A stretch of DNA of 63,914 nt, the filler included, from Psammoneis japonica (taxonomy: Eukaryota): the NCBI GenBank assembly GCA_008632985.1. It is 4 parts of 4 records of this genome, joined end to end, with 100 filler letters (N's around TTAATTAATTAA, not from the genome) between each part and the next. Parts side by side here need not be neighbours in the genome. Positions count along the whole stretch, not along the records: positions 41,182 to 61,565 come from QPGO01000450.1; 3 more parts are not named here. One strand, given 5' to 3'. Of this stretch, positions 21,791 to 63,914 are shown piece after piece. A program made the translations under genes and the position numbers. Each line of letters opens with the position of its first letter. Position 1 is the first letter of the stretch. Below the pieces are notes generated by a model that worked only from the letters and a program-made list of their open reading frames with translations, was not told the origin of the DNA and made no database searches.

Positions 21791-21959
21791 GATTTTCTCA
21801 AACTGCCTCTTCCTAGTGGTGCGCGCGCGAAGTTCACGTGCAACGTCACCCAGTGGCGCGGGGGGAGGGACAGACGCGGGGCAATGGCGGAACTGCTGCT
21901 GAGTCATGCAGGTGGGAAAAGAGATGGATTTCGAGTTGGGGTTTGATGTTTGCGATTGT

Positions 21960-41081: not shown

Positions 41082-41256
41082 NNNNNNNNNNNNNNNNNNN
41101 NNNNNNNNNNNNNNNNNNNNNNNNNTTAATTAATTAANNNNNNNNNNNNNNNNNNNNNNNNNNNNNNNNNNNNNNNNNNNNAGTATTCGTCTTGCCACGA
41201 TGAGCCATTGCTTGTTTGTTTTAAGTTCTATTTTGATAATTCCAGCTTTTCAACAC

Positions 41257-42240: not shown

Positions 42241-42472
42241 TGTTGTTGGTATGTTTGTATGTTGTGAGAAAAAGGACTGTACGGAAAGAGACACACTGCT
42301 TTTGTAGCAACTGAGAAAATACGAAAGCTTTATCGGAATGGGAATGACACACAACACTTGAATGCCGAGTCAATCGGGTTGACAACTGACAACAGTGAAA
42401 TCATAAAGATCATGAATCATCATGAGGTTGGTGTCGTGTGTCGTGTCGTGTGCGTGATGACGGTGACGGCAG

Positions 42473-42579
42473 CGAGTCCCGAATGGACTTTGAGTCCCGA
42501 ACACCTTACCAAAATTTTGGTAGGGCTAAATACCAAAATTTTGGTAAGGTGTTCGGGACTCAGACCTATTCGGGACTCG
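42473..42579. repeat. Nested perfect palindrome between two divergent genes
   Basis: 32-bp arms at 42491-42522 and 42531-42562, each containing the palindrome TACCAAAATTTTGGTA. Outer 12-bp arms CGAGTCCCGAAT/ATTCGGGACTCG. Confidence 0.95.
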
Positions 42580-42780
42580 AATCTTCTCTCTGTCCGTGCC
42601 TCCACAATCCCTTGCCGGTACACAGTGGACACTCGTACAAAATTCACGAACTCGGCTTTCTCCTCACTTTTTCGGGAACGGGAAAAACAAAAAGCACACT
42701 TTTGCACGAATATCAATTCTGCAAAGACAACAACTGAAACAGAACGCAAAAGGCAACAATACAATACTACCAATTCCATC

Positions 42781-43557
42781 ATGGACTGTCAAGAAGAAAC
42801 AAGAAAGAGTGTACGCTTTTGCAAAAGTGTCGCGGTTCATCGATACCAAAAGGCACCGCACTTTCAATGGTACAATATGGCGGAGCAAACACAAATCAAA
42901 AAGGACGCACTTTGGGTAGTGAGAAAAGCGTCTTCTCAAAATGCAGAATTGTTTGGCATATGTAGTGCAACAAAGCACTTGTTGGACAATACCTTTACCA
43001 GCATGTCCTTGACACACCAACTCTTGGCGCAGTGGAGTCGATTCTGTGGACCATTACGTGGATTGGAGCGATTGGTCAATATCAAACACGGAAAGGAAAG
43101 ACACCAGCGACAGAAAAATGTCGTTCAAGCAGTCTTGTACGCACAGTATATAAACAAACAACTCGACAACTACAATGATGTAGATTTGATTGCACAAGTG
43201 TCATGCGACAAGTCGAGACACGCAGTGGAGTTTGCTCAACAAATTGCCCTGGCGGACTATCGTGCCTTGGCTACCGAAATGTCACCACAAGAAGAACAAC
43301 AACATCAATTGTTTCTACAAAAGCATGTTCGAGTCGAACAAGAACCACAAAATATGAGCAAGAAGGATATCAAGAGCGGCCGCGGCATTTCCATCTCGCC
43401 ATTAGAAGCCATCAAGGGCTTTTCAAAACAAACTTCCGAAAAGTTGGAGGATGTAGAGATGGAAGTCACACCAAAACAGAGTGGTCCTCCATTTTCTCCA
43501 ATAAAGCCATTGAAGCAAACTGTACCAAATGAAGACGTTGCCGTTGGGGTATGGTGA
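42781..43557 (+). CDS. Diatom-type hypothetical protein (KSVRF...WY...RGLE family)
   Basis: Intact ORF with KSVRF, WYN, LRGLERL, VQAVLYAQ and A..D motifs. Normal composition. Confidence 0.75.
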   Translation: MDCQEETRKSVRFCKSVAVHRYQKAPHFQWYNMAEQTQIKKDALWVVRKASSQNAELFGICSATKHLLDNTFTSMSLTHQLLAQWSRFCGPLRGLERLVNIKHGKERHQRQKNVVQAVLYAQYINKQLDNYNDVDLIAQVSCDKSRHAVEFAQQIALADYRALATEMSPQEEQQHQLFLQKHVRVEQEPQNMSKKDIKSGRGISISPLEAIKGFSKQTSEKLEDVEMEVTPKQSGPPFSPIKPLKQTVPNEDVAVGVW

Positions 43558-43983
43558 TGCTCGAGTCGGGGTTGACTCGTGATGGCTTCAAAGCACAATA
43601 AGGTAACAAGTAGTGCACTCTACTAGCTAGACATATAGATTCAATTAGATATTTAAGTAGTATCTTAGGCGTTACCTATTATATAGTTCTGAATGTGTCT
43701 CTATCATAGTGAGTCCACGGTGAGCAGGGCAACGCCTGTTGTCGCCGCTATCGTTCTCATCTGCTTTTCCAATCCCAGGGCCATTGAACAATCTTTACGT
43801 TTTTGAATGCAGTGTCTTGTGGCTTTCGTGGTGCCTGCCTCGACACTTTCTATTACACTCTCAACACACGACACAACCTTCTGAGCAAGTACCGGTATGA
43901 AGGTTTCACAACGATGATGCGGATAAAAAAACCGCAACCCTCTTACGAATATATGAGATTTCTATTAAACTTTTGAATAGTAT

Positions 43984-45817
43984 CTAGTGTGACGCAACGC
44001 TTGTTCTGGATCCGACGGTACCCATTCCACTCAATACCGCCGCCATGCTGACATTTTCGTCTGCGGTACCAAATCCCGCAGCCTGTTGTGCAATACTCTT
44101 TCCACTGTGCGGAACAGGATCGTGAATGGCTTCCGTCATGGGAGCTACCTTGTTCTTTCGGATTATTCGGATTTGCGTACGTGTGTTTGCGTCGAGTGCC
44201 TGCGGTGATTTCAAGTACGGGTCTGACGGTTTCATAAAGTCTGGAATGTGACGAGGAGGAGCGGTACTGCTTACACGATGCTTTTCCAGATAAAACTCGC
44301 GTGAGTGACGTTGCTCGCTAAAGTTTGAGCTGACCGCCTCGGCATCCGAAGCCCCTGCTGCAACAGCAAGATCCCGTGCCCAAGTTGATACTGGTGATAC
44401 ACGCTCCTCGTCTTTTCCACATCATGTTTGCCAAACATTCGTTGTTTCCGCTGGTCGTCCAGCACAGCTTTTACTGCTATTCGTACATTCATTTGGCGTT
44501 GCTTGCCTTCTTCCATGGACGCAATGTGCTCCAATCCCTATCACAGCAAAAATAAAAGGCAGAAACTGGTGTAAGTGGCATGCAATATCTCTCAACCTCT
44601 GGTATAACAATAGAGCTTGATTCGTACTTACGCGGCGTGAATGACCAAACTTGTGCCACCATTTGTTGTCCAAGTCTTCCTTTTTCGATGGAGAGGACGA
44701 TGAAGATATCGACTCTTTCATTACACTGCTTTTGGTTCCCGGTGTTTGCCACGACTTGTTGGTCATGAGCCACACTTCACTCCCACCCTGCAACATGGCC
44801 TTGGCAACCAAGCGACCCGTCTTTTTAAAATCATCGTAATCGCTCTTTTGCCACCAAATGGCTCCCTTTTCAGCATATGTCATGTTTTTCCGAGACTTGA
44901 CAGTCACGACGCGAGCCATGGGAGCAAACTGCAAGCGTCGCGGATCGGATTCCTTCTTTTCTTCTTCGTGATAAACGGGAAAGAGTGCTCGCCGTTGTCC
45001 CGGAGCATCTTTGGGAGATTTGCGGGATTCGGGTAGATTCCTGGGTGTTTTCGTTGTTCCTCGTTTGAGAATACCCTTGATCTTGGGTTTTTCCTCGCTG
45101 TCTGGGGGCAGCTGATCAAGTAGCCCTTTACCGGCTGGTGGGGTGGATCAGCCATGAGTGGAGAGTCGGGTTGGGAGAGACCAAGTCTGGCCAAGACAGC
45201 GGATCGTTCTCGATCCGTCAGCTTGTCTCCCAGCACATCACTGCCTGTCGAAGACACTTCGTCGTCGTCTCGCTTTCCTCGCTTTGGTACGGTACTGGTG
45301 CTGTGGTCAACAATGGCTTGTTCGGTGGGAATCATATCGTTCGATGAGGTAACTCCATCCACAGAAGAGTTTGCTGACGGAGCTGAAGGAATCGAGTCGT
45401 CCTCGTTTTCATCGGTGGACTTGCTGCTTTGATCCTCGTTGTTTGCCATCCACGTAGGAAACAGACAACAAAAGATGTTTTTCTTGTCTCTTTCATGACC
45501 AAGTAGTGTTGGTGCATAAGGATCCATGTTGTAGCCATCATAGCTATATCCCGCATAATCCAAAGCAAACCTGAATAATCACCATACGAAGTAGTACTTG
45601 ACTCGTCGTTTGTTTTCGATGCTGCTGAGGCTGTTGATAAACTGTCCTTTTTGTTCTTTCCTGCAGATAGTTTATCGACTAGAGTAACTTCTGTCTGTGA
45701 CGACGGTCCATTCAAGCTGTTTCCACTTCTGTTTGTCGATCGGGTCGCTATTTTGTCTTCATTTTCAGCCAAGCTCGACAGTTGAGCATACGAGTCCCTC
45801 GTCAGACCCAACGCCAT
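43984..45817 (-). CDS. Diatom-type hypothetical protein (RGLE family), intron 44538-44631
   Basis: IWWQKSDY...WWHKFGHSRR|GLEHIAS...VKAVLDDQ. Several apparent 1-nt frameshifts. Confidence 0.65.
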
Positions 45818-47044
45818 GGCGAAAACACGTGTTTGTTGCCACAGAAAACAACCTACAAATCGGTATTCTTGTTTCTACAACTACCAAATTCACTTTCTCT
45901 CTGAAGAAAATCAATATAATTGAGAAAGCGTAGGTTAGACGGATAAGCGATGAAACCTAACAAGACTTGGAAGCACGTTCACGTGTTTTCGAGTCAATGA
46001 GAACACGACAAGCTGCAACGGAAAAAGAGTTCGCCACATCGACAACTCGAACAACCACGCGACAGCCACACGACGTGATTTTATCCGAAGGTGAATCATC
46101 CAAAAATTTCTGAAATGAATGTCTTCTACAGACATGAATATCGATAATGAAAAACACGTGGATTTCTACATACGTCAGCCGATAGGAATTCCACGTCGGA
46201 CCTTTGCACGGACTGTACTTAAAGACAACAATGTCCGAATGACAAAAGTCCGACATTTTACTTAGGAACACAAACCACCTGCAATAGATTCTCCGAATCT
46301 GATTGGCTCAACGACCAGTGAACGAACACCCTTCTTGTGTCACTGGATGGAAAAATTCAGCATGGCGAAAGAGCAGGAAGCTTGAAGCGCTTTCGACAAT
46401 GGAAACACAACGAACACAAACGAGAGCCTCGGAAAAATCCAATGATACCTACCTCGATCAAAAGAAGCAAAGCGTCAGATCGAATGGGAAGTTCTTTCTT
46501 CCGCCGTTGGAGTGAGAATCGCCGAGCACTTGTTGTTGAGAAAGAAGGGCAACTCTCGCAAAGAATGAGTTCGGCGTTGTGACCGTTTTAACTGGTAATC
46601 AGTAACGATATTATTTATATACGTGCAGCCTGACAGACTTACTTAGGAGATTCATGAATGGATGACGTCGCCAACCGGAGAGTGTTCGTCGGTTGATGCG
46701 TTAGATTGCGTCAGATCCCAGTACTAAAACTCCGTAGATTCTCACGTAGATTTTTGGCGGGAACTTCGACACACTTCAACATGCTGGATGCGGGAACTCG
46801 CCGATTATTTCCGCTTGTTGCGTTGTGCGTGGTGTTGTCTTCGTTTGAGAAGCCTTGTCGACAAAGGTACCGAACACCTGCGGAGGCAAACATATTTGTT
46901 GCATTCTCCGGCTTGAGAGTGCATTGCTACCCTGTAAAGTTGTCGAGATTGGTACCTGTAGCGAGTTAGCAAGTGAAGCGGTTCTCACAATCACTACAAA
47001 TCACCTAACAAGAACATCACCCCCATTTACTATCGTGAGACAAC

Positions 47045-48011
47045 ATGGCGGAACTCACCGATGCCGATTTGAAGCCTCACATTGAGCGATTGGTGCACAA
47101 GGTTGACTTGGATAGCACGAGTGCCAAAAAGTTTACAGCCCAACTATCAGAAGAGCTGGCGGCATTGACCTAAGCGGTCACAAGAAATTCATCAAAGCGA
47201 CCCTGCATGAAGTGATTCAGAAAATGGAACAAGACAAGCAAGACGAAAGTAGCGAGAAGAAGAGGATGAACCAGCACCACCGCCGAGAAAGAAAGCCAAG
47301 AGCAGCGGTGGAGGTGGTGGAGGCTTGGCTGCTCGTAAGGAAATATCAGACGAGCTTGCGGCCTTTCTGGGAAAGGGCAAGCAAATGGCTCGTACCGAAA
47401 TTGTCAAGGAACTCTGGGCATATATTCGGGAGCATGATTTGCAAAACCCAAACGACAAGCGTGAAATTCTGTTGGATGCAGAAATGCAAAAGGTCTTTGG
47501 TTGCAAGTCCTTTACCATGTTTAGCATGAACAAATACGTCGGAGCGCACATTCATCCATTCAAACCAGTCGATTTGACGTCGTCACCCAAAAAGAAAAAG
47601 GCGGCTGCTGCTACCTCCAAGAATGGAAAGAAGAAAGGACAGGATACGAAAAAGAGAAGAAGTGGAACGCAGGCACCGTACCAACTATCTCCCGAGTTGA
47701 TTCGGGTGGTTGAGAAGCGAATCTTGCCACGGCCTCAAGTCACACAAGCCTTGTGGGCGTATATTCGAAAGCACAATTTGCAAAATCCAAATGATAAGCG
47801 AGAAATTCTTTGTGATGACAAGCTACGTGCCGTCATGGGTGGAAAGGAAAAAGTTACCATGTTTAGTATGAACAAGTACATTACTCCACACTTGTTGGAG
47901 AAACTGGACAAGAGCTATTACAATCACGCGCAAGAGGAAAACGAGGACTCGGATCAGCATGATAGCGAATCAGGGGGAAGTGGGGCAGAATCTAGTGATG
48001 ACGAGGAATAG
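47045..48011 (+). CDS. DEK-C plus two SWIB/MDM2 domain protein (UAF30/Spp27-like)
   Basis: ARTEIVKELWAYIREHDLQNPNDKREILLD and PRPQVTQALWAYIRKHNLQNPNDKREILCD. DEK-C-like N-terminus from ATG 47045 with two apparent indels. Confidence 0.85.
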
Positions 48012-48364
48012 GCGGGGATGGAGAGGAAGTGTGTTCAATTGCATAATCGTACAATTCGAAGAGCGAGCGGTTTGTCAGTCTATTTTACTGTTAAGAATCT
48101 AGATGAGCGCCTCGTTCAATGCATAACATAGTTTCTTTATAGAGTCCTTGCTTGCTTCCTCTACTCTGCGGCGAACACTTGCAAAGGAAGATTCATAACA
48201 TGAAGCCATCGGGAATGCGCACTAGTCCAACTGTGCCTTAGAAGATCACAGGTTTCACTTGTTGCTTACAATAAAAAAGAGTAAAACAACAAAGAAACCG
48301 TGCATTTTTTCTCTCCACATGGCCTAAATTCTAAACCACGACCACAAGAACAATTCTTGAGCAG

Positions 48365-49553
48365 TTACAGGGTGAAGGGACGAACAGGCGCTGCTTCCAA
48401 AGCAAAAGCGGCGCAAGCATGTCTGCAATGACAAGTGTTCTTGCCAGTCAATGAATGATCATTGTTCAAAACAGTCAAACCCAGCATGGCATGTGCAGCT
48501 TCTCCACACTCCAGTTGATCCCAAGTTGTTGCAGCATGGTCTTTTGTCAATTTGGGTGATGACACACCATGAATCTTTTGCCACACCAACAAAAAGCCCC
48601 ACCACTTCCATCTTGTTCATCAGCTGCATTGCTGCAACAAATGCCAAGCCCAGCGGGGCAAAGCACACCACTTTATTGGGCACATTCATTGGAGCAATGG
48701 TTGGGAAACATTGCTTGTCCCTTCAATGTCACCTCAACCCAAACAGTCAGTGGCCATGGGAGCTGTGAGCTGGGCAGTGCTTGAACACCTGCAACAAGAA
48801 AAACAAGAAGAAAGTTTGTTGTGTGCGCTGGCTTGCACAAATGGAAACACAAGACCTGTGAACCATCTTCTCAGCAAGGAGAGAGGCAAGAGTTTGCAAG
48901 CTGTTGTGTTTTTGCCATGCAGCAGCTCTCCAGGAATGACAAAATCAAAAACTGTTTTGCCACTGCTGCCTCGCTGCTGCCACCCACACCAACACCGACC
49001 ACAAAACACAACACAAGCTCCATGTTTAAAGCACTGCTGTGCTTCTGCCCTGCAACTCTGGCAACAAGCTAACCCACACCCCCAGTGCATCATGTGATGT
49101 GGCACGCAGCAGCAGAGATGCGCAACAACCAGTCGAGAATCATGCCACAAGGCTGTGGTGCCCACCAGAAACAGCTGGCAGCAACAAAAACAGGACCAGC
49201 ACAATGACACTTCAAAAGCAAAGCATTTGATGCTTCACTTGGGTTTTCTTCCTGAGATTGGATCTGGCAGCAAAGGTGAAACAGGCAATCTGGAAAAGTT
49301 TCAACATGAGGAAGGGCAGGACAGAAAATGACCTCCAACTTGCGCTGAGCTGGACTCAAATTCACACTTCTGGGAGCAGCAACAACAGAAAAATGTTTGC
49401 AACATGGGGCAGAGAACTTAAAAGGACAATTAGCAGAAGGGGAGTCATTGACACTGGAGAGGCATGGACTGAGAGCAGCTGGCAAGTTGGCAAGCTGATC
49501 GTCCAAAAGGACCTTCAAGACACATGGAAAATGTGCTGAAACTTGTTCAGACT
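48365..49553 (+). mobile_element. Hypermutated fragment, possibly a LINE 3' region, cut by the LTR element
   Basis: Trp-spaced QAIWKSF..KGR...WTQ...W...WQ...WKM pattern and TpA-depleted composition. Confidence 0.3.
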
Positions 49554-52139
49554 TGACAGAATGCAAAGACAAATGGCAAGAATTCAAACAATGACTCCTT
49601 GCTGCTGTCTAAACAGCAGATGAGTCTCCACTCAGAGACCATCACAGGAGCCGAAAGACTGGTGTGTCGGCACAATCAGGCTGCTGTCATTCTTCTTGTG
49701 AGCCGTGTGGCTCGAAAGCAAACTGCATCGTGCGCGCACGTGCGGAGCTAAAGATGCGAGTAGCGCATGACAAATCACGCGCACCTAAAATCATGTTCAA
49801 ATCCTGTCACTCCCCATTTTGCTTGAGGGGCCACAGAAACAGATTTGACTTTGGATTGACTAAAGAACTTTGGAATCAAAGCACCAAAACATGAGGAGAC
49901 AAGAAAGGATCAAGGTCCTGGAGCAACGTTGCATTCTCCAAATGGGTCATCTTGAGTTGGGCTGCGTCTCCCCAATTGCAGATGCCGTTGCACCTTTTGA
50001 AGCTCAAGGCACACTTGGGATCTTGTGGGATTCCACATCTGCACTTGCAATGGAAGGAGCAAAGTTTGGTCTGGTTGACAATGTTGAACAGCGGGGCAAC
50101 ATCGCAGGACAATGTAGACAAGTTGACATCACCGTCACTCCCCAAACTAAGGTCATAAAGACTGACAGCCACCAAGGGATCCTGATTGGGAGGCCCAGTC
50201 TTGAGGTGCGAGACTTGAGGGATCCAATCAGGAGGCCCAGTCTCGAGATGCGAAGTTCCAGGGATCCAATCAGGAGGCACAGTCTCAAGATGCGAGACTT
50301 TAGGGATCCAGTCAGGAGGCCCAGTCTCCGGGTGTGAGACATGGGGGATCCAATCAGTGCGAAGCTGCTTGGATGTCCTGAACTCCCCATCTGATGAACC
50401 GGTTGAACTGTTGTGAACAGATTTGATGATGGGAAAAGGAGGCTCCCCATCAGGAGATGCAAGAAGCAAGTTGTCATTGCCGTCACTTCCCAAACAAAGG
50501 TCATGAAGGGTGACAGCAGCCAACACTTTGAGGTTGGCAGCATGTGGTTTGCGAGGTGCAAGGGTTGCAGCTTTGGAAGCCGTGGGTGGAGTGTCCCAAC
50601 TGGTTTCAAAGTGCGGGCCTGCGTAAGGGCTGCAATCCTGCACTAGGCCGAGGCTGCTTGCAGGCGGGGTGGTCAAGACATGCGGGGCGCGACTGATGCC
50701 AAAAGATGGGGACACCTGAGTGGCGGCACAGTGCGGGACTGGCGTCAAAATGGTGCTGGGTTCACCTGGTTTGGATGGCAAGGGACCCGGCACAGGTGCG
50801 GAGGGTGCTGCACCAGTGGCCAGAGAGGTCAAGCAGTCCGGACCAAGGCGGCAGTTGCGAAATTCCTCGGGTGTGAACAACTGAGGGTTGTTGCTGACGT
50901 CATCACCATTGCGGGATTTGACAGTGTAGAAACTGATCAAAGCTGCCAACAGATTCTTGTGCCCACGTGGCAAAGGTGCAATGCTGCCGTTGTTGTCATA
51001 GACGAGGGCGTCGATTTGGGACGGGAGAAAAGCAAACAGATCTTCGCACGAATCAGAGCCATCAATTGACAGAGCTGATCAAAGAGGGCTGTTCTCACTT
51101 TGGTTGAGCACAGTGCCGAGAATGCACTCAAAGCTTTTGGTTTGTTGCTGTCGCGTGAGAACCATGACAAAGGATGGTGCAGCAGATGCAAATGACAGGA
51201 ACGAATCTAGAGCGTGGTCTCGACCAGAAGTTTTGACTGGAAACTTGGGTTGCAAAACTTGACTTGAAACAGACTTGACTTGAAACAGACTTGACTTGAA
51301 ATCTTGAACTATCTCAAGATCAGAAGTTGCCGGGTTGTGCTGTCCTGTTTGCAGCCAAGTGCAAAACTTCCCATCCGGACCGCAGAGTTGTGTGGGCATG
51401 TCCGAACCCGCAGCTGGTGGCGCTTTGGGTTGCTTGCGAACGGAGCAGCAGGTTGTAAGCCCCTGCAGGCAAGCTAACCAGAGGTGGACAAGACCCCCGA
51501 ACCGTTCTTATTTTGTGTCGGTTGGATTTCCCGATCAGGCTGGCCAGCTGACGTTGGCGTCAGGTGCTGTGGACGAACGAACAAATGCGGGAAAAGCACC
51601 CTCGCCCCAACGTAGACTGCAATCACGGCTGCTTGCTCTCACAGTCATCCTCGTGGACCTGGCAGAACTGCAGAGCACCAGCAGTCTGGGGCAGACAGGA
51701 AACAATGGACTCGGCGTGCGTGTGGGGAAGTGGCAAGGCCGGAGTCAAAGGAGCAGGATCAAGTCCTTGGTTGTCTCGGTCGTGAAAAAGCATGTGCATG
51801 TGTGCATTCAGCGATGAAGCTCCTTGAATGGGTGTGGGGTTCTTGACCGTTAACCGTTGAATGAACATGTCCAGCGACCGTCAACCGATGAATGAAGATT
51901 TCAAGCGACGGGGATCAAGAACAGACTTGGAAACAGCCGTTGAATGCAGGTCTTTGGCAAACAAAAGGTGGCACAATCAATCCAGACATGCAGCAGTAAA
52001 AGGAGTCCAATGGGGAGGTTAAACTCCTGCCGATGCTTGGCATTGAGTGCGCGTAGACATGCCGATGTAAGCAGAACACACACAGAGGCCTGCGCAAAAT
52101 GAAAACAGCATCGTCGGCAGATCAATGACGACGATGGTG
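49554..52139 (-). mobile_element. Second copy of the non-autonomous LTR element; 3' LTR at 49554-49809, 5' end interrupted by Gypsy A
   Basis: Collinear reverse complement of 12750-15735: LTR, PPT, gag-like ORF and 42-bp repeats. Confidence 0.92.
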
Positions 52140-55100
52140 TGTCATGTGGCACAAGGCCCATTGTGGGTGATTGTGGTGATTTTAAGAGTCGTTCATGAAA
52201 AGTGAGACTGCAAAAGTGTAAAATTCTAAAGTGAAGTTCTGGAGCGGCGGTTCTGTGGAATGTTCTTTGTCTTGTCTTTTTCCAGAGACTTTTCTTCCCA
52301 CTCATGCACTGAATGTTCCTGAGATTGTTCTTAAATGCATGGCATCTTGGGACTTCTGAGGAGTTGTCTTGAGACTCATGCATCGTGTCCGAAGGTGTCA
52401 CGGGAAAAGTCGAGTGCTCTGATTCGCTCTTCATTGTCTTGACCATTTTCTTGTGAGAATTGGATTGGTTGAAAAGGGACTTGAAGTTTGGTCAAGAAAT
52501 GTCTTCTTGATTTACTTGGGAAGTGGCACAGTGTGCTCAGGGAGTGACCGTTGTGTCCCGATGTTCAGCATCGCTTTCTGCACGTGCTCGGTTGTTTGCT
52601 TGGGCAGAAGATTTTGGACAAATTGTTCATGGAACATGTGTGTGTCTCTTGATGTGTGTTCACGTAGATGCGTGTTGGTTCTGTTGGTCATTCTCTGTTG
52701 TTCTTTAAGACGTCACAAAGTGTCGGGTCATGAGCACGATGTGACATGCACCTCCTCCAATGAATCACATCAGGGAGAGAAAGGAACGAGACGTTGTGTG
52801 TTGACAGTCTCGCGGTGATTTCCTTTTTGGATGATGACGGTGCCATTGGACTTTGTTTCATGTGTCTCGCATGGGCCAAGTTGGTGCAAGGCGAGTTTGG
52901 ATCGATGAGGGTCATCGTTTCGGAGAGAAACAAGGTCTCCTGCTTTGAAGTCATGATCGAGTCGCCGAGAGTTTTCACGCGCGTCATCCACTTGCGCTTG
53001 TTGTCGGCGGTGAGCACAAATGGTCGGCCAGTGGACGTTGCATTGTAAGGGCAAGATCATGTTGTGTCCAAAAGCAAGTTGGCCGGCAGAGGCTAGCATG
53101 ACGGTGTGTGCCATCGAGTTCATTGCCCAAGTTGCTGAGGCTGTCATTGCATTCCACGGATTTGGTTGATTAAATGCGTTGGGACCATCAACTTGTTGAG
53201 CTCATGTGCAGCTCCACAAAACATCGTGGGTCCGTTTGAGCAGTGAATTTGCTTGTGGGTTCTGCACTGTTGTGGGCTTAGACTTGGTCCCATGAGAAAT
53301 TGACAGCTCTTGAAATTCAATGCCTGTAAATTCTGCACCGTTGTCGTGCGTGCAACAGACCGGGCATGGGAATTTGCATGACCACACTTGGTCAAATGCT
53401 CTGGCAGTTTCCAGAGCTGAGACTGTTGAGATCTGATCCATGCCAGAATGATGAGCAGCTAGATCCACCATCGCAAGGGCGGTCAGCATTAAACTCTGTC
53501 GGTTGACGCCGGCACCAGTGGCAAAGGCAATCGGTCCGACAGTGTCGACTGCCACCTGCAACCAGGGGTTGATCTCAAGGGCCTGTGTGTCCTTGAGAGG
53601 TGTTTTTCCATGTGCTCTGCGGTTCTCTTTGGACCTTGGACAGGTCTGACATTGGTCTGTTTTTGTTTTGACGCCTTGGGTCAAGCCTTGCCAATGACAG
53701 CACTGTCTGAGGGTCTTTTCCATCCGTTGGACACCTGGATGGCGTAAATTGACATGATGCCAATTCAACAGAGGTGCTTGTAGAGCTGCAGGGATGACAA
53801 TCTTGTCCTCAAAAAGGACCAGGCACAGGTGTCCATCCTGCACCATGCAACTGCAGTCAGGTGATTCTTTCCGACTCGGGTCAGTTCGAGCAAGTTTCAA
53901 TGCTTTTTTGCACACAGCATCATCTTGCTGTGCTTCAATGATTGTGTCAAAGGAGACAGGACAGTGAGTGTCATCATCACATTCAAAGGCAAAACACTCT
54001 TCCAGCATTGGATCTGCCGCTGGCATCTCTGGGTCGTCAGTCGTGGTCACGGCACGGGACAGGAATTCCGCAAGCACATTTTTTGCTCCCGGCAGATAAA
54101 GAATCATGGGACCAAATTCTTCCACAATCAGCCGCCAACGACATGCTCGGTCTGATTTGAAATTTGCAAAGGTCAGATTCTTGTGATCCACACAAATCAT
54201 GATCCTGTGACCCAACAGGATGTCACGACACTCTCGGAGCATCACAACTGTCGACAGCAATTGTTGTTCAACAACTGGACATCTTTTTTGCGTGTCAGAG
54301 AGTTTGCGGGAGTAAATTGCTGTTGGGCGCTTGTCTTGAATGACAACGCTGCCTGGCTGGCATTTTGAAGCATTGGTGTAGATGCAGAACATCTCATTGA
54401 AATCAGAGCAGGCAAGAAGCGTCTCGGCAGAGATCCATCTCTTGATTTCTTGAAACGCTTGTTCGTGTTCGGGTTTCCACTTGAACTTGACTGCTTTTGA
54501 GGTCATGCTCGAAAGAGGTGCCAACAGATGGGCACGAAGGCGCCACATCTCGCGACAGAAGTTTGTTGTTCCGACAAAACCTCTGAGTTCTTTCTTTGTT
54601 TTGGGTGAAACCAAATTCACAATTGCATTGACCTTTTTTGGTTGCGGCTTGATTCCATGCCCAGTGATGACAAATCCTAGGTGCTCCGTTTCTAGAGTGC
54701 AAAAGAAAGTTTTTCGCAAATTTGTTCTAAAGCCTGCATCATTCAAAAGCACAAACACTTCATGCAATTGGGCAAGGTGATCATCAAAGGATCCCTTGCC
54801 AACAATCAATGGGTCGTCAATGAAAATCAAAACGAATTCCAAGTGTCCTGACAGGTCAGTCATGACTTCTTGGAATGCATCTGGGGCTGGTGCAAGTCCC
54901 ATTGGCAATCTGCAGCAAGCATGTTTGCTGAACGGCAGCACAGCAGTCAAATGCTGCTGACATTTCTGGCTGATCTGTGTCGTAAAAAATCCCATGTTCA
55001 AATCGATCGCTGTGACACAAGCACAGCCGTGTGGCTTTCGTAGCATGGTTGGCATTGAAGGCAGAGGCCAAGGGCATCGTTGCATGCATTGATTTAAAAG

Positions 55101-56615
55101 CCGAAAGTCGGTGACGAATCGGCAATCACCACCTTTCTTCGGTGTGAACATTGAAGGAAATCCCCAAGCTGAGTCTGAGATCCTTCTCAGAACTCCTGCT
55201 CGGCATGATCACTCTGCTTCTCCCTTCGCCATGTTGTGGTTGATCTGGGGTGTGCTGTGAGGTCGGCACATGATGGGCTTGGTGCCGGGCTTAAGCTCAA
55301 CACTGACCAGTGGTCGCTTGACACACTGTCTGAGCTCTCCTTGCGTGAGGCTTGAGAAGTCTTCTGGCAAGGCAACAAGAGCTTCACCTTGTTCTCTTGA
55401 CAGATGCTCGGGCACACATTCTTGTAAGTCCTCTGCAGGACTGCAGTCATTTGGGCAAACAGCCTTGGTCTTACGAGCTGCCATGAGCTCTTCTAGCATC
55501 GTCGGTTGGTGCCAAAAATCTTCAGGATGTCTCATTGGAAAGGACAAGTCATCCCAAGTGATGACTTTTTCTTGGAAATCAAGCTTCATTCCAAGCTTGA
55601 ACAGAACATCTCGTCCCACCACAGCATCGTAGATTCCCTGCAAGGATGAAATGTAAAGGCGTACGTTGAATTGTCTGTGTGAGGATGTGTCAAGGAATCG
55701 ACAACAAGCTGGCACGATGTGAGTTGTCTGATGGGTCTGCGCAAACAAGGTCTCCCATTGTGTTGGTGCTGAGGCAGCCTCATCCAGTGCTCCTTCTGAG
55801 AGCACATCTTTCTTTGTCATTGTTCAACTGCTGCCGCTGTTGAGTGAGGCGAGCAGAACATTGTTGCTTTTGTCTTGAGTCCCATCGATTGGATCAAGCA
55901 GTTGAAGCCGCACGACACATCCGGGGTTCTTCCATTTGTGTTTTTGAGGCTTTCATGCTGCGTGTCTTTTTGGCTTTTTGTTTGCTGCTTTGCTCTTCTT
56001 CTTGTTCTCTGAAATGGTCAGACATGCCATCTCCAAGGATTTCTTCTTGTTGGTGGAACCAAGTGCGATGCTCTTCATCATCTGGGTGCACCACACCAGG
56101 TTCACAGTAAAAAAAATTGTGATCACTGAATGCACTCAAAGGCTTGTCACCATCACTGTGAGGATCTGGTTCAGGCATTCGTGCCACTGGTTGTGGCTCA
56201 GGCACCACGGCTGGCACAAGTTCATGCATCATGAGAACACTTTCTTCATCGGTGTCAGACTCTGGGGCCGCTGACATTTTCTTGTCAGACTTGCCAGTCA
56301 CAAGTTCGTCTGCCGATGCAGCTCGCTTCGTCTTTGATGTGGTTGCTCAACGAGAAAGTGAGCCATGTTGCTCATGTGGGCAGGGTTTGGTGTCTTCGGA
56401 CGTTTTCGAATGTCCTTCATCTTCATGGAATTCATCTGGATGACTTGGGACAATCAAGTTTCTTCTCGCAGGATGAATGCCTCCATGAGGGAACACTGCG
56501 CAGCAGTCGCAATCATCCATTCCATCTGGACATGGTGCCTCTGTCAACTCCTGGGCATCCGTGCTGTTGTCATGCTCAAAGATTGATGACATCAGAGATG
56601 CGCGCTTGCACGCGC
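52140..56615 (-). mobile_element. Ty3/Gypsy element A (3' LTR 52140-52746; PR-RT-RH-IN), gag interrupted by Gypsy B
   Basis: LLASLNSGS (for LLDSG), FIDDPL, CIYTNASK, HPGVQRM, THDNGAEF. PPT GGAGGAGG next to TGTCAC...ATGACA. Confidence 0.9.
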
Positions 56616-59600
56616 TGTCTGCCCTGTGTGTGCACTGGGCGCTGAAAAAGAAGATGTGTTTTGACTTTGTCGTTGTGAAAATTGTGAGCTAGTTTAGAGC
56701 AGAGAAAATGGGATCGTGCGAACAGGGAATCTTGCCAAATCCCCATTCGTTTGCATTTGGATCGCATCAAATCGATCGTGCGTTTGCATTGTGGATCGTG
56801 CGAATCAAGCCATCACGTGCCATGCACGAGTGATGTCATCATGTGGAATCACACTGCCATCGTGGGCCAGACGATGGGCCAGTGTGCTTCACACGGATGC
56901 TCTCTCAGCATCCTTCTGGAATTGCCTGAGACCCAGAGCCATGCCCTCCTGTGGTCGTGCTTCCCAGGTGCGTGTTGACAACACTACGTTGCCATGCACA
57001 AGAGGCTTGCGCATGGTCTCGCCGTGTTGTCCAGCAGCGAGGCACACTGCACACTCCCCCATGATCAGGGCCGTTAAGTGACAGAATGTCTCACTGGTGA
57101 CAGGGTGCAATCTGCCATAGATTGCACGCATCCATCAGCGCTCCGTTCTGGGTGCGCAACATGCCGTTGTCATGTGCACGGACAACTCTGGCAGGTCCTG
57201 CACAGCTGTCAGAACTGCACTTAGAGGATTGTTCCTGTTTGATGAGTGCCAATTGCCCTGCGGTGCATTGACACTCCTTGTGTTTCTGATTTTCACGCTT
57301 GTCATTTAAGTGGACAAGCTTCTGCTTTCTGGTTTCTGTGTGCTTCCACTTGGCACGATGGGCAATGGACAAAACCGCGTCACGTCTGAAGACCAATTGC
57401 ATGGGACTTGCACATGTGGTCGTGTGCACCGCAGCTCTAACAGCGAAGGCTGCTGTGGAGAGGATGCCACTCCATGGGTCATCTTTGTCCAGTTCCATGT
57501 CCTGCACTGAAAAGGAATGCACCATGTTGCCAAGTGTCTGGTGCACATGTTCCACTGTGGCATTCGCCTGTGGATTCCACTTGCTTGTGGGTTTCTTCAA
57601 AATCCCACAGTCATTTTTAATCATCTGGCTAAATTCTGCCATAAATTCTGTCCCACGGTCATAAACCACCTGGGTTGGCCACGGATGTCTGCATGGCCAC
57701 ATTTGTTCTACGACGTTTGCTACGACGTCTGCGCGTTTCGTAGACACTTCTTCAATCTCGAACCACCCGGTTGCCGGGTCGATCATTGTGACCGCCCATG
57801 ACTGCAAAGTGTCCTTTCCGCGCATTTGAATTTTGTGTGGCCCTGTCACATCCATGCATGGAGTCTCCCATGGAATTATCTCAGCAACCTTTTCTGGCAG
57901 CTTCCCATGATGCTGCATTCAGCGTTTTGTCTTCTGGCATCGATCGCACTTGACGCATGTAGAGTGCACCGTAGACCTCATGCCAGGCCAGCAGAAGTGC
58001 TGGGCAATGGACATTTCCGTGCGTGTCTCTCCTGGATGACACAGTGTCTCGTGGTGCCATTCAGTTGGCAGAACCTGCAATGACTGTGGTGCTGCGATTT
58101 TGTCCTTATGACAGATTAACTGTCGTGATGACCCTCCCCCACGACACGTGCGAATGGAGCAGTCGGACGAGTCCTCAGCTCGCGAGAGCAGGTGCTTGTC
58201 CTTTTGTTGTTCTTTTTGAATGTGCTTGAAGCCAACGGGCGGAGGTGCGGCGTCTTGCGCCTCTGCATTAAAGAGGCTTCATGCAAAGGACGACTCGATG
58301 GAGTGTCTTTTACATCCGGATTGGCTTCGGAAGGCAAGCTGGGTGCCAGCCGAAGGCGACTGAGAGCGTCAGCGACTGGGTTGTGGGTGCCCTTAACACA
58401 GCGTAATTCGGGACCGCATTCTTCGCATGTCAACCGCCAGCACATGACACACTCGGCATTGAATGCTTTGTGCGCAAGATGCCCATGATCAGCATGTGTG
58501 ATCATGCGACAACCAAGGAGAATCGTTTGAAATTCTTTCAACGTCTCCACAATGGCGAGCAATTCTCTCTCCATTGTTGTGCAATTTAATTGCGCACTGT
58601 CAAGCTTTCTGCTGTAAAAGGCGACAGGTTTATCATCTTGGGACACAACTGCTCTCAATTGATGTTTAGAGGCATCGGTGTGCATCTCAAAGGGTTCATT
58701 AAAATCAGGATGTGACAACAAAACATCATCCAATGTTGCCCGTTTAACGGTTTCGAATGCCTCGTTTTCAACGGATGTCCACTCCCACTTGACAGTCTCG
58801 CTTGCGAGTCGTGTTGGCGGAGCCAAGACTTCAGAACGTCTAATCCACGTGTCGTGGCAGCAGTTCACCACACCAATGAATGACCCGCAGGTCGCGTTTG
58901 TTGGTTGGGGTTGCGATTCGCTTGATGGCGTCGACTTTATCAGGCATTGGTCACACTCCGTCTCTGTTGACCAAATGACCCAAGCACTCTAATTGGGTTT
59001 GACAGAAGTGAGATTTGGTTGCGTCAACTTTTAGTCCTGCTTTCTGGACCCTCAATGAAACTTCTTCAAGTTTGTTGAGGTGATCTTCACAGGTGCCTTT
59101 TGTCACGACGAGAAGGTCATCTAAGCACGTTCAAACAAACGATGGATCTTCAAATGGGCCTGACATGCGTTCTTGGAAAATGTCTGGCGAACTGCATGAC
59201 CCCATGGGCAACACCTGCATCTCATGCTTGCCCCACGGGAAGATGAGCGTGCAGAGCTTCTTGCCATCAGCATCCAATTGGATGTGACAATGGCCCACAT
59301 TTAAATCCAGAGATGTGGCCCACACAAAGCCTTTGAGCTTTGAGCAGCACGTCTTGGATGTGAGGAATCGGGTGAGGCAATCGCTTGATCCGTTTGTTCA
59401 GCTCTCTGAAATCATTGACAAAGCGTGCCGTTAAGTCTTTCTTCAGCATGACAAATGATGGAGCTGCCCATTGGGATCGGTTGACGCGTTTGAGAACACC
59501 GATGCGCGCTGGGCGCTCTGCTTCTTTACGCAGCACAGCTTCGTGCACACGAGGTGCTTTACACGGACGAGCGTGGTGTGGTTGTGCACCCTCCTTGAGT

Positions 59601-61565
59601 TGGATGTGGCAGGGTTCTCCCTTCCATTCTCCAGATGTCCCATCAAATGAGGACTCATGGCGTTTCAACAGTGCCAAAAGGTTGTTTTGTTGAACTGCAG
59701 AAAGTCCCATGGCCGATCGCATCATGTCCTTGAGGCAGGCCGGCGCGTGCTTGGCATCTGAAACACGCAAAATCCAGTCAGTTTCCGAAGACAAGGCTTC
59801 TGGATCTTGAAGATAGAAGGAGGTTTCCACCGCAGCATCCATGTGCCTCATTGGTGCTTCTCCATTGACTGATGGCCACTCTGTCATCTGTTCAGAGAAG
59901 ACAACATCAATGCCTTGTGTCTCCAGAATGTCACGTCCAACAATCATGTCGCACTTGCCCAACTTTCCATTGTGTGCGTGGACGGCATGTTTAAGTTCTG
60001 CAGTTTCGGACAATTCTGGCAACTGAAATTTAACGGCACAGTCGTCAGACGCACCAAACGAGCCTGTTGCCGTAGTCCAGTTAGTCTCAGCCATTGAATG
60101 GCTTTGCAAACGCTTGCAGTGTCAACTGTTGAGTGGAGTGCTGCTGGCGCCACCATCTGGCAGTGCCTCAATGGTCTGAGTCTTGCCCTTGCCATGTTCA
60201 GCATTCATGGCCACAAACAAGATTGGAGTGAGATGAGTCTTTTTAACTCATTTGCGGGATTGGCCTGCAACACGTGTACGATGGTAATTCAATTGTTCAT
60301 TCACACATTCATCCAATGTGTTAAAACCACCGGCATCATGTTGGCCTCCTCCTCAGGTGTCCGAATCTTTGGAATCACTTAAGTTGAGGTCACGGAAGTG
60401 ATCAAGCTCCTCCTTGCGTGCCTTGCACTTTTTCTGAGCATTGGCAAAGAACTCCTTGACCTTTGATCTGATGAGAGCATCAATGTCTTCCTCATTCCGA
60501 GGTTTTTCATCAGGCTTGCTGCCTCCGTTGTCAGAATGTCCAGTCTTGACATGTTTCACGTGGTGCTTGAGCTGACGGCAATCCTCCGCATGATGTCCAC
60601 AGTTGGTCCTGTGTGGCACACACGACTTCTGGGTGTTCCGTTGGTTCGTGATCAACGACTCAGGATTGTCCGTTCTACGTCCCCGCTTGCGTGGAACCCC
60701 AGTGTGTTGGTCCAGGTTACCTCCGGCAAGCTCGACCTGCTCGATGCGCTCGCAGAACTGTGCAAATTCGGCAACAGTGTGCGCCAAGGGGTCAAAATTC
60801 TGTAACGTCATGACTTTCTGCCACGCGTTCGGCACACCGCACTCGAACATGTCGCACAGTTCGTCATTGGGCAATGGTGCCGGTGCTTCTCCATCCTCCA
60901 TCACGGGTGGAAGCTGAGAGATGTGGCCGTTAATTTCAACAGCCCTTGCGACATGGTCACAAGTGGAAACCTCTGCGGGCTTGTGCATGAAGCGCCTCAG
61001 ATGACGCTTCTGCAACAGTGCCGCCCTGTGTGGGAAGATGCTCTCCTTTAGCTTCGCGATGCATGCTGCGTGCGTGGCATTGGTTTCGGATGCCTGCGTG
61101 TCAGCGGCATCATTGAATGACGTCAGAGCATCACCCTGTAGTGGGTCGCGCACAAGGGCAAATTTCGCTGGCCCGGTCGTCATGTTTTGTCCTTCGTGCA
61201 TGCGATCCACGTTGCGCAGAAAGATTGGGAGTGTCTCGCATGTAGCCGCAGAAAGGCACGGGATGCCCATCTCGTGCATTGGACTGTCCGGATCAGCAGG
61301 GTTGTTGTGCAGCTTGAACATCTGGCACTCGCCCTGCTGCAGCTCTTTCTTCTCCGGCTGTGCGAACGGAATCGGCGGCTTGGTCCGCTTCTTCATGGTC
61401 GTTTTGAGATTTGTCGGTCCCACCAACATTTCATAGTTTCGTTTCTGTGGATTTCGTCACCTCGCACAATGTGCGAGAGTGACATTGCTGTGCCCCATGT
61501 GTGCACTGGGCGCTGAAAAAGAAGATGTGTTTCGACTTTGTCGTTGTGAAAATTTGAGCTAGTTT
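56616..61565 (-). mobile_element. Ty3/Gypsy element B, nearly full length (3' LTR ~56616-57051; 5' LTR from ~61489 into the gap; gag 60353-61429; pol in frame)
   Basis: Shared LTR text GTGCACTGGGCGCTGAAAAAGAAGATGTG at both ends; PPT CATGGGGGAG. Motifs ALPDGGAS, WAAPSF, CLDD, HTDASK, VADALSR, YDRGTEF. Confidence 0.92.
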
Positions 61566-63914
61566 NNNNNNNNNNNNNNNNNNNNNNNNNNNNNNNNNNN
61601 NNNNNNNNNTTAATTAATTAANNNNNNNNNNNNNNNNNNNNNNNNNNNNNNNNNNNNNNNNNNNNAAAGTGCATCCGTCGACTTGTCCTGTGGCAACCGC
61701 CTGATCGACTCAGAACGTGGGGAAATCCTGGAGGATGTGTTGTTCAATAATTATATAGCACCTTTAGGCAATGAAGGAAGCGACTTTAGGCAAGGCAAGG
61801 AAGCAAAAGAGCAATTCAAGGACGCGAGGACCCACAAGCTGGTGACCCACAATTCTGCGAATCTACCGCTGGAGACAATTTGCAAGATGGGAGACGACTC
61901 CTAGCTGTAACTGGCAATTAAAAGCACTAGTCCATACTAATTTATCATATAGCTCTTTAACAAAGCTGTTCTCATCATTGCAGTAATGATTTCCAGCGCT
62001 TGGAGCCTTGCAGAGAGAACTACCTGCGCACACCAACAACCGGATCAATCCCACTTCCGGGCTTCAATGTCACCAATTGTGTTTGTTGACTTTTGCTATA
62101 GCTCATATTTTACATCCTTCTACATATCAGATGCTTCCTGTGCTATTCGATGCTTCCTGTGCTATTTATTTTATTAACAAACTACGCATCGTTCGGTGTA
62201 TGCAAAATGATGAGAATGGTGTCCGACAGAGAGGTTCCGGCCAGCTGTCGTCATTTACCTGTCACTGGTATCATTTTCTACAGTTTGAACCCAATTTTAG
62301 AAGCATTGAACGCTTGAAAACGCCTCTTTGCAGACAATATGAACAATTTAAGCCGTGCTCCGAATCGATTTGGTTGGAGCTGGCATGTTCACAGGATCCC
62401 AGGTCCAACTGCTTGCGGCTCCTCAGGAACTCCCATAGATTTTTGACACCTGATAACTGCCCAGGATCGTCTCATTTAGGCATAGAGGGAGGCGTTTGAG
62501 CCATTGATTGAAACTTTTGGATGGATTAAAGTCGGCATTGAGTCGATTTGATTGTCGCAAACGATCTTGAAAGCAAGGATTGCCGCGTTTGCTTTTNNNN
62601 NNNNNNNNNNNNNNNNNNNNNNNNNNNNNNNNNNNNNNNNNNNNNNNNNNNNNNNNNNNNNNNNNNNNNNNNNNNNNNNNNNNNNNNNNNNNNNNNNNNN
62701 NNNNNNNNNNNNNNNNNNNNNNNNNNNNNNNNNNNNNNNNNNNNNNNNNNNNNNNNNNNNNNNNNNNNNNNNNNNNNNNNNNNNNNNNNNNNNNNNNNNN
62801 NNNNNNNNNNNNNNNNNNNNNNNNNNNNNNNNNNNNNNNNNNNNNNNNNNNNNNNNNNNNNNNNNNNNNNNNNNNNNNNNNNNNNNNNNNNNNNNNNNNN
62901 NNNNNNNNNNNNNNNNNNNNNNNNNNNNNNNNNNNNNNNNNNNNNNNNNNNNNNNNNNNNNNNNNNNNNNNNNNNNNNNNNNNNNNNNNNNNNNNNNNNN
63001 NNNNNNNNNNNNNNNNNNNNNNNNNNNNNNNNNNNNNNNNNNNNNNNNNNNNNNNNNNNNNNNNNNNNNNNNNNNNNNNNNNNNNNNNNNNNNNNNNNNN
63101 NNNNNNNNNNNNNNNNNNNNNNNNNNNNNNNNNNNNNNNNNNNNNNNNNNNNNNNNNNNNNNNNNNNNNNNNNNNNNNNNNNNNNNNNNNNNNNNNNNNN
63201 NNNNNNNNNNNNNNNNNNNNNNNNNNNNNNNNNNNNNNNNNNNNNNNNNNNNNNNNNNNNNNNNNNNNNNNNNNNNNNNNNNNNNNNNNNNNNNNNNNNN
63301 NNNNNNNNNNNNNNNNNNNNNNNNNNNNNNNNNNNNNNNNNNNNNNNNNNNNNNNNNNNNNNNNNNNNNNNNNNTGTAGCCGGTGGGCTTGGAGATGGCG
63401 ACGTGGCTTTGGTACAGGTGGGTGAAGGCGACGGTGATGGGAGCTTTGGCGCTTTCGTTAGAGCCTGGGATGCCGGAGTCGGTGGCGCTCCTCCTTTGCT
63501 CGGATTTTGGTGACAGCATGGTGGGTGAAGGCGACGGTGTTGCTACTGGTAGCGTTGTGACGGCGCTGGAGGTTTGGTGGGTAAGGACAGGAGGCGTTAG
63601 TGGAAGGGGTTGGAGGCTTTGGCATGTGACGGCGAGTCGTAGGAGCAGGAGTAGTAGCATGTTGCGGTGGTTGGAGCGGGGGTTGGTGTTTGTTTGGGCA
63701 CAAAACCAAGTTCACATTCCACACCAAATCCCTGAAACTCGCCCTCAGGTTTGTACACTGCTTCTTGAATGTTTTCTCGCATCCATCCTCCAAGCAGCAA
63801 GCTCCTTGGTTGGGCATCAACTTTTGGGTTGTCGCACTCGTATCCGGGCTTCGTAAAAGTACCGCCTTGCAACTTGCACGTTTCCTGCAAAAGCTTCCTA
63901 CATCCGAAAAACAA

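Follow-up and report, generated by a model that had tools for sequence, protein, structure and literature searches.

Hypermutation directed at TpA dinucleotides has been described in the chlorarachniophyte Bigelowiella natans, where the main text of a recent preprint reports de novo TpA→TpG/CpA changes in mutation-accumulation lines (Mettrop et al. 2026, bioRxiv 10.64898/2026.01.13.699255). According to the same text, these changes affect a region of integrated giant-virus DNA and a virophage region at a rate about 1000-fold above background, TpA-poor coding sequences are enriched in reverse transcriptase (RT) and DDE domains, and an ADAT2-like protein was proposed as candidate (bioRxiv 10.64898/2026.01.13.699255). 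A flank analysis was not found in the main text; the mutated sites are listed in the supplements, which may bear on this (bioRxiv 10.64898/2026.01.13.699255). Here, we describe a related footprint in a stretch of 63,914 nucleotides (hereafter the window) from the Psammoneis japonica assembly GCA_008632985.1, in which repeats, among them two Gypsy pol copies, have undergone TpA-specific transitions on both strands. These are confined to the repeats, with sharp borders, and follow a hierarchy of flanking bases that spans about two orders of magnitude.

The window consists of four contigs joined by spacers of 44 N, TTAATTAATTAA, 44 N (20601-20700, 41082-41181, and 61566-61665); since the spacers mark separate contigs, adjacency across them is not real. 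A further gap of 778 N lies at 62597-63374. From a table of observed/expected (obs/exp) ratios per 1 kb, a depleted set (1-20000, 28001-41000, and 48501-61000; 45.5 kb, overall TpA obs/exp 0.10), whose three blocks lie on separate contigs, and a non-depleted set (21001-27500 and 41200-48000; 0.53) were defined, and the transition zones (20001-21000, 27501-28000, 41001-41199, 48001-48500, and 61001-63914) were omitted from all counts.

With both strands counted, TA obs/exp is 0.10 in depleted vs. 0.53 in non-depleted DNA, CG 0.42 vs. 0.96, and CA/TG 1.70 vs. 1.20, while the remaining dinucleotides shift by at most 0.1, meaning that only TA, CG, and CA/TG move. The TG gain of 0.0314 per position compares with 0.0301 predicted from half of the TA loss plus half of the CG loss; because both losses add up to the gain, two processes feed TG/CA in depleted DNA, namely CpG decay and TpA→TpG/CpA. 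Apart from CpG decay, the changes are almost exclusively A:T→G:C transitions at TpA, as judged for these historical events by an indirect test (dinucleotide balance together with the Tyr and Ile columns described below). DNA polymerase eta introduces A→G changes at WA motifs (W: A or T), with TA as a hotspot, and its error-prone synthesis during the repair of repeats would be an alternative; a preliminary description of this DNA had proposed AA→AG enrichment as the mark that distinguishes such WA mutagenesis from a TpA-specific modifier. AA is, however, not depleted (symmetrised obs/exp 1.19 vs. 1.21) and AG is not enriched (0.97 vs. 0.93); the process is therefore TpA-specific and not of the WA type, leaving the polymerase with a next to negligible probability.

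The depletion is confined to repeats and spares the flanking genes. At the first border, the final dense TpA lies at 27444, followed by single ones at 27738 and 27891; at the second, the final dense TpA lies at 48366 and the next at 48674. A total of 7659 contigs of the public run X1 align to 41200-61000 at 80% likeness, and their summed depth, which does not equal copy number and was taken only as a sign of many look-alikes, is 46-78 as far as 48470 and climbs to 586-89,644 in the bins that begin with 48471. The onset of depletion is hence no more than about 300 bp from the start of this pile-up. Taken together, the Gypsy pol regions, Copia RT and integrase remnants, internal paralogues, and the X1 pile-up identify the depleted DNA as repeat DNA. 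The depleted blocks comprise 1-20600 (the whole first contig, with 118 surviving TpA within 1-20000 and a TpA obs/exp of 0.02-0.21 per kb), 27445-41081 (TpA 0.0-0.10, with the strongest CpG loss, 0.06-0.45), and 48367-61565, which contains the originally studied region (53202-59830) and is less depleted beyond about 60000; across 1-20000, 28001-41000, and 49001-61000, the ratio per kb stays within 0.0-0.21. The gene-bearing comparators are 20701-27444 (TpA 0.43-0.59, CpG 0.6-1.1) and 41182-48366 (TpA 0.5-0.69).

It could be argued that the pattern arose without any mutator, be it through compositional habit or selection against TA, because the repeats are of foreign origin, or through an error of sequencing, and TpA is somewhat low (0.53) even in genes. 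Yet the depletion is common to unrelated families on three contigs (two Gypsy lineages, a Copia remnant, and unclassified repeats), conserved Tyr codons were turned into Cys and His codons, including that of the catalytic YxDD Tyr of the second Gypsy copy, and a 589-base X1 contig matches 48475-49063 without a single difference, albeit from a run that may be the assembly's own source. We regard explanations of this kind as hardly credible.

The surviving TpA sites had been described as sitting mostly in TYTA/TARA (Y: pyrimidine; R: purine), and this is borne out: 205 of 285 survivors in depleted DNA have this context as opposed to 127 of 459 TpA in non-depleted DNA (odds ratio 6.7, Fisher p=9.6e-33), with 24% expected from the base composition of the depleted DNA. 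The same context accounts for 94/118 survivors at 1-20000, 34/52 at 28001-41000, 77/115 at 48501-61000, and 47/63 within 53202-59830. All Tyr codons cited originally were recovered (ATC-TAC twice, ATT-TAC, CTT-TAT, CTT-TAC, GTT-TAT, TTT-TAC, and TTC-TAT); the five pieces of pol reading frame hold no in-frame Tyr codons other than these eight, all of which read T-Y-TAY. Of the exception GTGTAC reported near 9370, the position stands but the word does not, as the site at 9371-9372 reads TTGTAC and GTGTAC occurs at 60277. Retained contexts thus differ from background, and the proposed sequence specificity beyond TpA, usable as a fingerprint of the enzyme, is supported by them.

It had further been suggested that the mutagen disfavors T at −2 (A at +2 on the other strand). 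Such a T or A is indeed protective, being found in 0.49 of strand contexts in depleted vs. 0.28 in non-depleted DNA and in about 52-54% within each adjacent-base class (TAA, TAC, and TAG) vs. 26-37%, but the larger effect comes from the adjacent base, which the original wording had folded into its "Y/R". A Y before T or an R after A is present in 281 of 285 survivors compared to 319 of 459 TpA in non-depleted DNA. The log2 survival odds at +1 are +1.27 for A, +0.32 for G, −0.88 for C, and −2.12 for T, and +0.81 for A at +2; among survivors, TAG makes up 0.28 (vs. 0.22 in non-depleted DNA), TAT 0.06 (vs. 0.26), and TAC 0.17 (vs. 0.31), while flank positions 3 and 4 have little effect. Hence, the base directly adjoining TpA matters most, and T at −2 or A at +2 adds further protection.

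The tetramers reveal how steep this hierarchy is. Depleted vs. non-depleted counts are 67 vs. 17 for TTAA, 28 vs. 16 for CTAG, 63 vs. 40 for CTAA/TTAG, 55 vs. 64 for GTAA/TTAC, 27 vs. 48 for ATAA/TTAT, 36 vs. 79 for CTAC/GTAG, 5 vs. 55 for ATAG/CTAT, 3 vs. 43 for GTAC, 1 vs. 38 for ATAT, and 0 vs. 59 for ATAC/GTAT, and these ten classes differ with a chi-square of 201.7 (9 d.f., p=1.5e-38). TATA is absent from depleted DNA, compared to 54 strand counts in non-depleted DNA. Expressed per 10,000 positions, RTAY drops about 100-fold (0.9 vs. 105.3), mixed sites with one good flank about 7-fold (13.5 vs. 92.5), and YTAR about 1.6-fold (34.7 vs. 54.9), whereas TTAA is not depleted (14.7 vs. 12.8). 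Only four RTAY sites survive in the entire 45.5 kb, at 9371 (the TTGTAC mentioned above), 33146, 55662, and 60277. In 1-kb bins arranged by rising depletion, RTAY falls from 11 per kb to 0.9, 0.11, and 0.05, mixed sites from 17.9 to 7.1, 3.2, and 0.95, and YTAR runs from 5.1 to 5.8, 4.4, and 1.7. The decay is thus orderly: RTAY is the first to go, mixed sites follow, and YTAR declines only where depletion is strongest.

Some of the surviving TpA must have arisen anew by ordinary mutation after depletion, and if this held for most of them, their contexts would reflect where new TpA emerge; TTG/CAA are in fact the commonest xTG/CAy words in depleted DNA, from which G→A or C→T gives TTA/TAA. However, the base before TG in this DNA is T in 0.32, A in 0.24, C in 0.22, and G in 0.22 of cases, while that before surviving TA is T in 0.49, C in 0.28, G in 0.17, and A in 0.06, and removal must therefore still be context-dependent. 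More generally, survivor flanks differ from both TG and CA flanks within the same DNA and cannot be put down to repeat composition, because the latter flanks are ordinary. Moreover, four conserved Tyr and ten conserved Leu TTA/CTA codons represent retained ancestral TpA in protected contexts, and the site classes disappear in an orderly sequence as depletion rises. New TpA as the source of the pattern is accordingly very unlikely.

The direction of change can be read from the two Gypsy pol copies, both on the minus strand. Copy 1 (52781-55823; RT, RNase H, and integrase, with Pfam RVT_1, RT_RNaseH_2, Integrase_H2C2, and rve) carries a single in-frame stop across the 872 codons of 53202-55823 and has the RT motif FIDD, while copy 2 (57091-60121; Pfam rve and RT_RNaseH_2) is broken and has lost the catalytic YxDD Tyr, its motif CLDD lying immediately 3' of a stop. 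For polarisation, 120 Gypsy homologues (the best 120 of 193) were aligned to the window by tblastn, and a column was taken as conserved if 15 or more homologues aligned there and Tyr was present in no fewer than 60% of them. At the 56 conserved-Tyr columns of both copies, the window has 19 Cys, 16 His, 11 Phe, 4 Tyr, and 6 other residues; the 27 columns of copy 1 read 10 Phe, 7 Cys, 5 His, 3 Tyr, and 2 Ile, and the 29 of copy 2 read 12 Cys, 11 His, 1 Phe, 1 Tyr, 2 Trp, 1 Ala, and 1 Met. At 111 conserved-Ile columns, ATA is found 0 times, ACA 15 times, ATG 8 times, ACT 0 times, and ACC once, and the Thr codons must derive from ATA because ACA abounds while ACT and ACC are absent or nearly so. 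TTA (6) and CTA (4) are retained at 145 conserved-Leu columns and GTA (0) is not at 50 conserved-Val columns, which is the flank rule seen in codons.

These columns also bear on the editing of retrotransposon transcripts by an ADAR-like or fungal TAD-like enzyme, fixed by subsequent reverse transcription. Retrotransposons are among the targets, and the preprint on Bigelowiella cites a preference of ADAR for U before the edited A (bioRxiv 10.64898/2026.01.13.699255). Against this route, both DNA strands are affected: sense T→C is as common as sense A→G (His 16 vs. Cys 19), and sense-strand TG/CA counts are nearly equal (281/305 and 263/302); editing of the sense transcript is therefore excluded as the main route. 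ADAR and fungal editing favor a G or a purine after the edited A, and here TAG is protected. In Bigelowiella, the change moreover arises in resident single-copy DNA, as far as described in the preprint (bioRxiv 10.64898/2026.01.13.699255). RNA editing as the overall explanation is, in our estimate, scarcely tenable.

Phe at conserved-Tyr columns is in excess in copy 1 (10/27 vs. 1/29 in copy 2, Fisher p=0.002). Since Tyr→Phe needs a transversion, copy 1, judging from these codons, may mark a lineage that was shedding TA under selection while still active; the contrast between Phe and FIDD in copy 1 and CLDD in copy 2 suggests such purging. One of the Gypsy homologues, P0093, contains 0.61% Tyr, 4.6% Cys, and 4.5% His against medians of 3.9, 1.2, and 2.7 among the 120 listed homologues and appears to carry the same Tyr-poor, Cys/His-rich signature in another public sequence. 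By tblastn with the 120 listed homologues (E≤1e-3), no copy was found beyond those within 52500-60200. A metagenome scan with the window's pol gave no matches, and one with P0093 gave three short, distant loci (L001-L003) with ordinary TpA (0.65-0.68).

Which strand reads the flanks had been left open originally. Survival alone cannot separate the 5' T of the mutated A from the 3' A on the other strand, but sites with one good flank can: at Y-T-A-Y, the product is Y-T-G-Y if the A preceding Y is mutated and Y-C-A-Y if the A of the other strand is. Conserved Tyr preceded by Y became Cys 11 times and His 5 times, and conserved Ile (ATA) followed by R became ACA 7 times and ATG 4 times, in both cases with the first product reporting the A followed by Y. 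A further comparison is provided by two copies of a repeat element found by self-BLAST, at 12400-15800 (plus strand, with 277-bp terminal direct repeats at 12436-12712 and 15459-15735) and 49500-52200 (minus strand), which align over 2537 columns with 81% identity and differ at 22 TA-vs.-TG/CA columns; with the TA-bearing copy taken as ancestral, the ratio is 11:1 in favor of the A followed by Y. The 50-54 CA-vs.-TG columns of this pair, which show no RTAY excess, were left unused since their ancestor may have been either TA or CG. Pooled, the assignment is 29:10 (p=0.003), and a k-mer mass balance with CpG-derived products split evenly points in the same direction in three separate blocks (41:12, 56:14, and 54:29). 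Overall, mutations favor the A that has a pyrimidine after it, and the base on its 5' side contributes to a lesser degree.

Likelihood models were fitted to both retention and outcomes. For retention, the negative log-likelihood (NLL) is 83 with a context-free rate and −110 to −147 with context models, a gain of about 190-230 log units that holds with a separate exposure time per depletion class. A model with 5' bases only mispredicts the outcomes and is rejected because its NLL (61-63) exceeds that of a coin toss (40.2), whereas a 3'-only model is compatible with them (37-38); once the base before T is included, the fit to retention gains about 30 log-likelihood units for 3 parameters, also with per-class exposure times. 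RTAY decays faster than the sum of its half-sites, and uneven exposure would bias this the opposite way.

This latter feature would likewise be expected if the mutator, as a dimer or a deaminase of double-stranded DNA, recognised a partly palindromic word, V-R-T-A-Y-B, in the duplex and then attacked either A. The minus-log survival of RTAY, mixed, and YTAR sites (4.7, 1.9, and 0.46, with an additive prediction of 2.6 for mixed sites), the outer flanks of mixed-site survivors (T at −2 in 80/123 vs. 83/246, R at +2 in 88/123 vs. 106/246), and the lead of the both-flank over the 3'-only model by the said 30 units for 3 parameters all fit such a word. On the other hand, the two adenines fare unequally in one-good-flank sites (29:10 pooled, and 2-4:1 by k-mer balance in the three blocks), and symmetrised counts always look palindromic and are as such no evidence; we consider a palindromic word improbable. 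Our reading is instead that the target on the mutated strand is T-A-Y, or better T-A-Y-Y, that R before T is also preferred, though less strongly, and that both flanks act on the same adenine.

Summed up, these observations would be accounted for by a DNA-level mutator that is aimed at repeated or silenced DNA and turns TpA into TpG or CpA, acting on either strand at a rate set by the two bases on each side. RTAY would be destroyed fastest, sites with one good flank at an intermediate rate, and YTAR slowly, whereas TTAA would be practically immune and T at −2 or A at +2 would slow the process further, so that the TYTA/TARA pattern would represent the residue of differential decay. The preferred target on the mutated strand would be T-A-Y(-Y), with the smaller preference for a preceding R. 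We infer that the process acts on resident DNA and is enzymatic; presumably, it is guided by whatever marks these repeats. Most likely, a polynucleotide deaminase, TadA/ADAT2-like or other, would turn adenine into inosine in one DNA strand. Adenine deamination is the simplest assumption; it was proposed for the published parallel, and T-A-Y recalls the U-A-C of TadA substrates. No deaminase-family Pfam match was detected among the open reading frames (ORFs) of the window. Context-dependent TpA hypermutation at the DNA level is, in our view, highly probable and the account as a whole rather likely, while the enzyme class is a tentative suggestion by analogy that may well prove wrong.

The same DNA change would result if thymine rather than adenine were modified, that is, if a TET/JBP-type dioxygenase oxidised T in R-T-A of silenced repeats to 5-hydroxymethyluracil (5hmU) or 5-formyluracil, which pairs with G and leads to T→C. 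5-Formyluracil mispairs with G, and T→C in R-T-A equals A→G in T-A-Y, so that all counts fit equally. As described for dinoflagellates, 5hmU preferentially takes the place of T in TA and TC steps, where it labels repeats and keeps transposons silent (PMC11572971). A TpC effect is, however, lacking here (GA/TC obs/exp 1.05 in depleted vs. 1.08 in non-depleted DNA), and the excision repair of 5hmU should leave other changes besides pure transitions. We know of no diatom thymine dioxygenase or 5hmU, either. Thymine oxidation thus appears unlikely, though it is the strongest of the competitors to deamination.

Several points count against the account of a DNA-level mutator as a whole. An A-deamination on one strand and a T-modification on the other give an identical DNA change and fit the data alike. 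The strand assignment is weak when the polarised data are taken alone (18:9, p=0.12), and the 11:1 of the paralogue pair presumes that the TA-bearing copy is ancestral. Over 58 outcomes, models containing the 3' side barely beat a coin toss (NLL 37-40 vs. 40.2), and the full model splits the effect between the 5' and 3' sides in an unstable manner. The duplicate 17739-18877/19465-20600 differs at 6 CpG-derived columns but at 0/6 shared TpA, and no direct sign of ongoing activity was seen. Finally, neighbouring gene DNA served, for most sites, as a crude stand-in for the original TpA contexts of the repeats, although it cannot create a 100-fold spread among tetramers.

CpG decay accompanies the TpA process in the same DNA and points to cytosine methylation, a known feature of diatom transposons. 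CpG loss is strong in repeats (obs/exp 0.06-0.45 at 28001-41000), and a 60-bp tandem array at 3554-4044 shows mixtures of CG, TG, and CA within single columns, the footprint of methyl-cytosine decay beside the TpA process. As an internal replicate, this array offered CpG decay only and no informative TpA columns. The duplicate just mentioned (1.1 kb, 98-99% identity) is TpA-poor and carries ORFs with a helicase-associated (HA) domain. Weak remnants of a RING finger, an integrase zinc finger, and a Copia RT lie in depleted DNA at 8589-9377, 10987-11406, and 38239-38631, all on the minus strand; for the last (RVT_2, E=4.6e-6), no long homologues were found.

The depleted blocks also contain many long ORFs: 87 stop-to-stop ORFs of at least 150 amino acids are listed, many of which overlap in several frames, and 90 of 99 ORFs of at least 120 amino acids have no Pfam family at E≤0.01. 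In our reading, this abundance probably reflects the erasure of TAA and TAG, as a result of which spurious long ORFs would appear in all frames. Annotation is also affected by the systematic replacement of Tyr, Ile (ATA), and Leu (TTA/CTA) codons, owing to which transposon proteins escape homology searches.

Non-depleted DNA encodes an ORF with a coatomer-gamma appendage domain (22958-25372, minus strand; Pfam PF08752) and a SWIB/MDM2-domain ORF (47253-48011, plus strand; E=1.1e-60). Among the 120 of 173 matches listed for the former, every named homologue is from a diatom (Nitzschia inconspicua at 58%, then Bacillariaceae, Seminavis, Mayamaea, Skeletonema, and Fistulifera), and the top matches listed reach 72%. 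The HA-domain ORFs presumably fit a diatom as well, given the distribution of that domain. Judging from these homologies, the host is probably a diatom or a close relative. Searches with the coatomer-like ORF in the protein atlas and with the whole window in Rfam gave no matches.

The sole prior description of TpA-specific hypermutation of foreign DNA is the 2026 chlorarachniophyte preprint, which comes without an enzyme and, in its main text, without a flank rule (bioRxiv 10.64898/2026.01.13.699255). Neither full-text searches of the literature nor a 2025 preprint on diatom transposons, screened for relevant terms, yielded a report of TpA hypermutation in diatoms, and the same, deeper footprint in an apparent diatom would extend the phenomenon to a major algal group. 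With slightly less than even chances, diatoms may possess a TpA-directed DNA-editing defense against transposons that is related or convergent to that of chlorarachniophytes and widespread in stramenopile-alveolate-rhizarian protists, with the word (R)-T-A-Y-(Y) as target and TTAA immune, and that drives transposons to purge TA while they are functional. If so, the target word is strict enough for a biochemical identification of the enzyme: the roughly 100-fold spread between RTAY and TTAA amounts to a specification against which candidate deaminases or thymine dioxygenases can be tested in vitro, and the published mutation-accumulation data can be re-read against the flank rule.

Cytosine deaminases of the AID/APOBEC3 type cause C→T/G→A changes in TC/CC with a strand bias that stems from minus-strand complementary DNA. 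The footprint described here resembles theirs in being a context-specific, deaminase-type one in retroelement DNA, with flank preferences that fingerprint the enzyme, but it consists of A:T→G:C on both strands, and only TA and CG are lost. Fungal repeat-induced point mutation (RIP) likewise hypermutates repeats at a dinucleotide target with sharp borders at the repeat ends; unlike RIP, which makes TpA from CpA, the process at hand lowers TpA 5-fold and raises CpA/TpG. A→G changes with U/T before the A are shared with ADAR hyper-editing and fungal sexual-stage A-to-I editing, yet those act on RNA, whereas here TAG and TAA are protected and both DNA strands are changed.

In bacterial TadA, the substrate loop reads U-A-C-G, and early TadA-derived base editors preferred YAC. 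The T-A-Y target resembles both, and TadA/ADAT2 also deaminate an A that is preceded by U/T, although their natural substrates are tRNAs. Only few cases of TadA/ADAT2-type activity on chromosomal DNA in the wild are cited in the preprint (bioRxiv 10.64898/2026.01.13.699255). Dinoflagellate 5hmU is comparable in being placed at TA (and TC) steps in repeats and tied to transposon silencing; it is, however, an epigenetic mark that is not reported as mutagenic in the pertinent account (PMC11572971), and a TC effect is absent here.

The closest match thus remains Bigelowiella natans, with which the window shares TpA→TpG/CpA on both strands, the restriction to foreign or mobile DNA, and low TpA along with high CpA and TpG (bioRxiv 10.64898/2026.01.13.699255). 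It differs in its host, a stramenopile as suggested by the diatom homologues and not a rhizarian, and in its targets, which are multi-copy retrotransposons and other repeats. De novo events were seen in the Bigelowiella lines, as opposed to a historical footprint here, in a sequence present in the runs of a single sample, and depletion is deeper in the window, with an obs/exp of 0.03-0.15 vs. 0.45 reported for the nucleocytoplasmic large DNA virus (NCLDV) region of Bigelowiella (bioRxiv 10.64898/2026.01.13.699255). The kind of process is therefore known from Bigelowiella, and what is new is its occurrence on a different branch of the supergroup, the much deeper depletion, and the flank rule.

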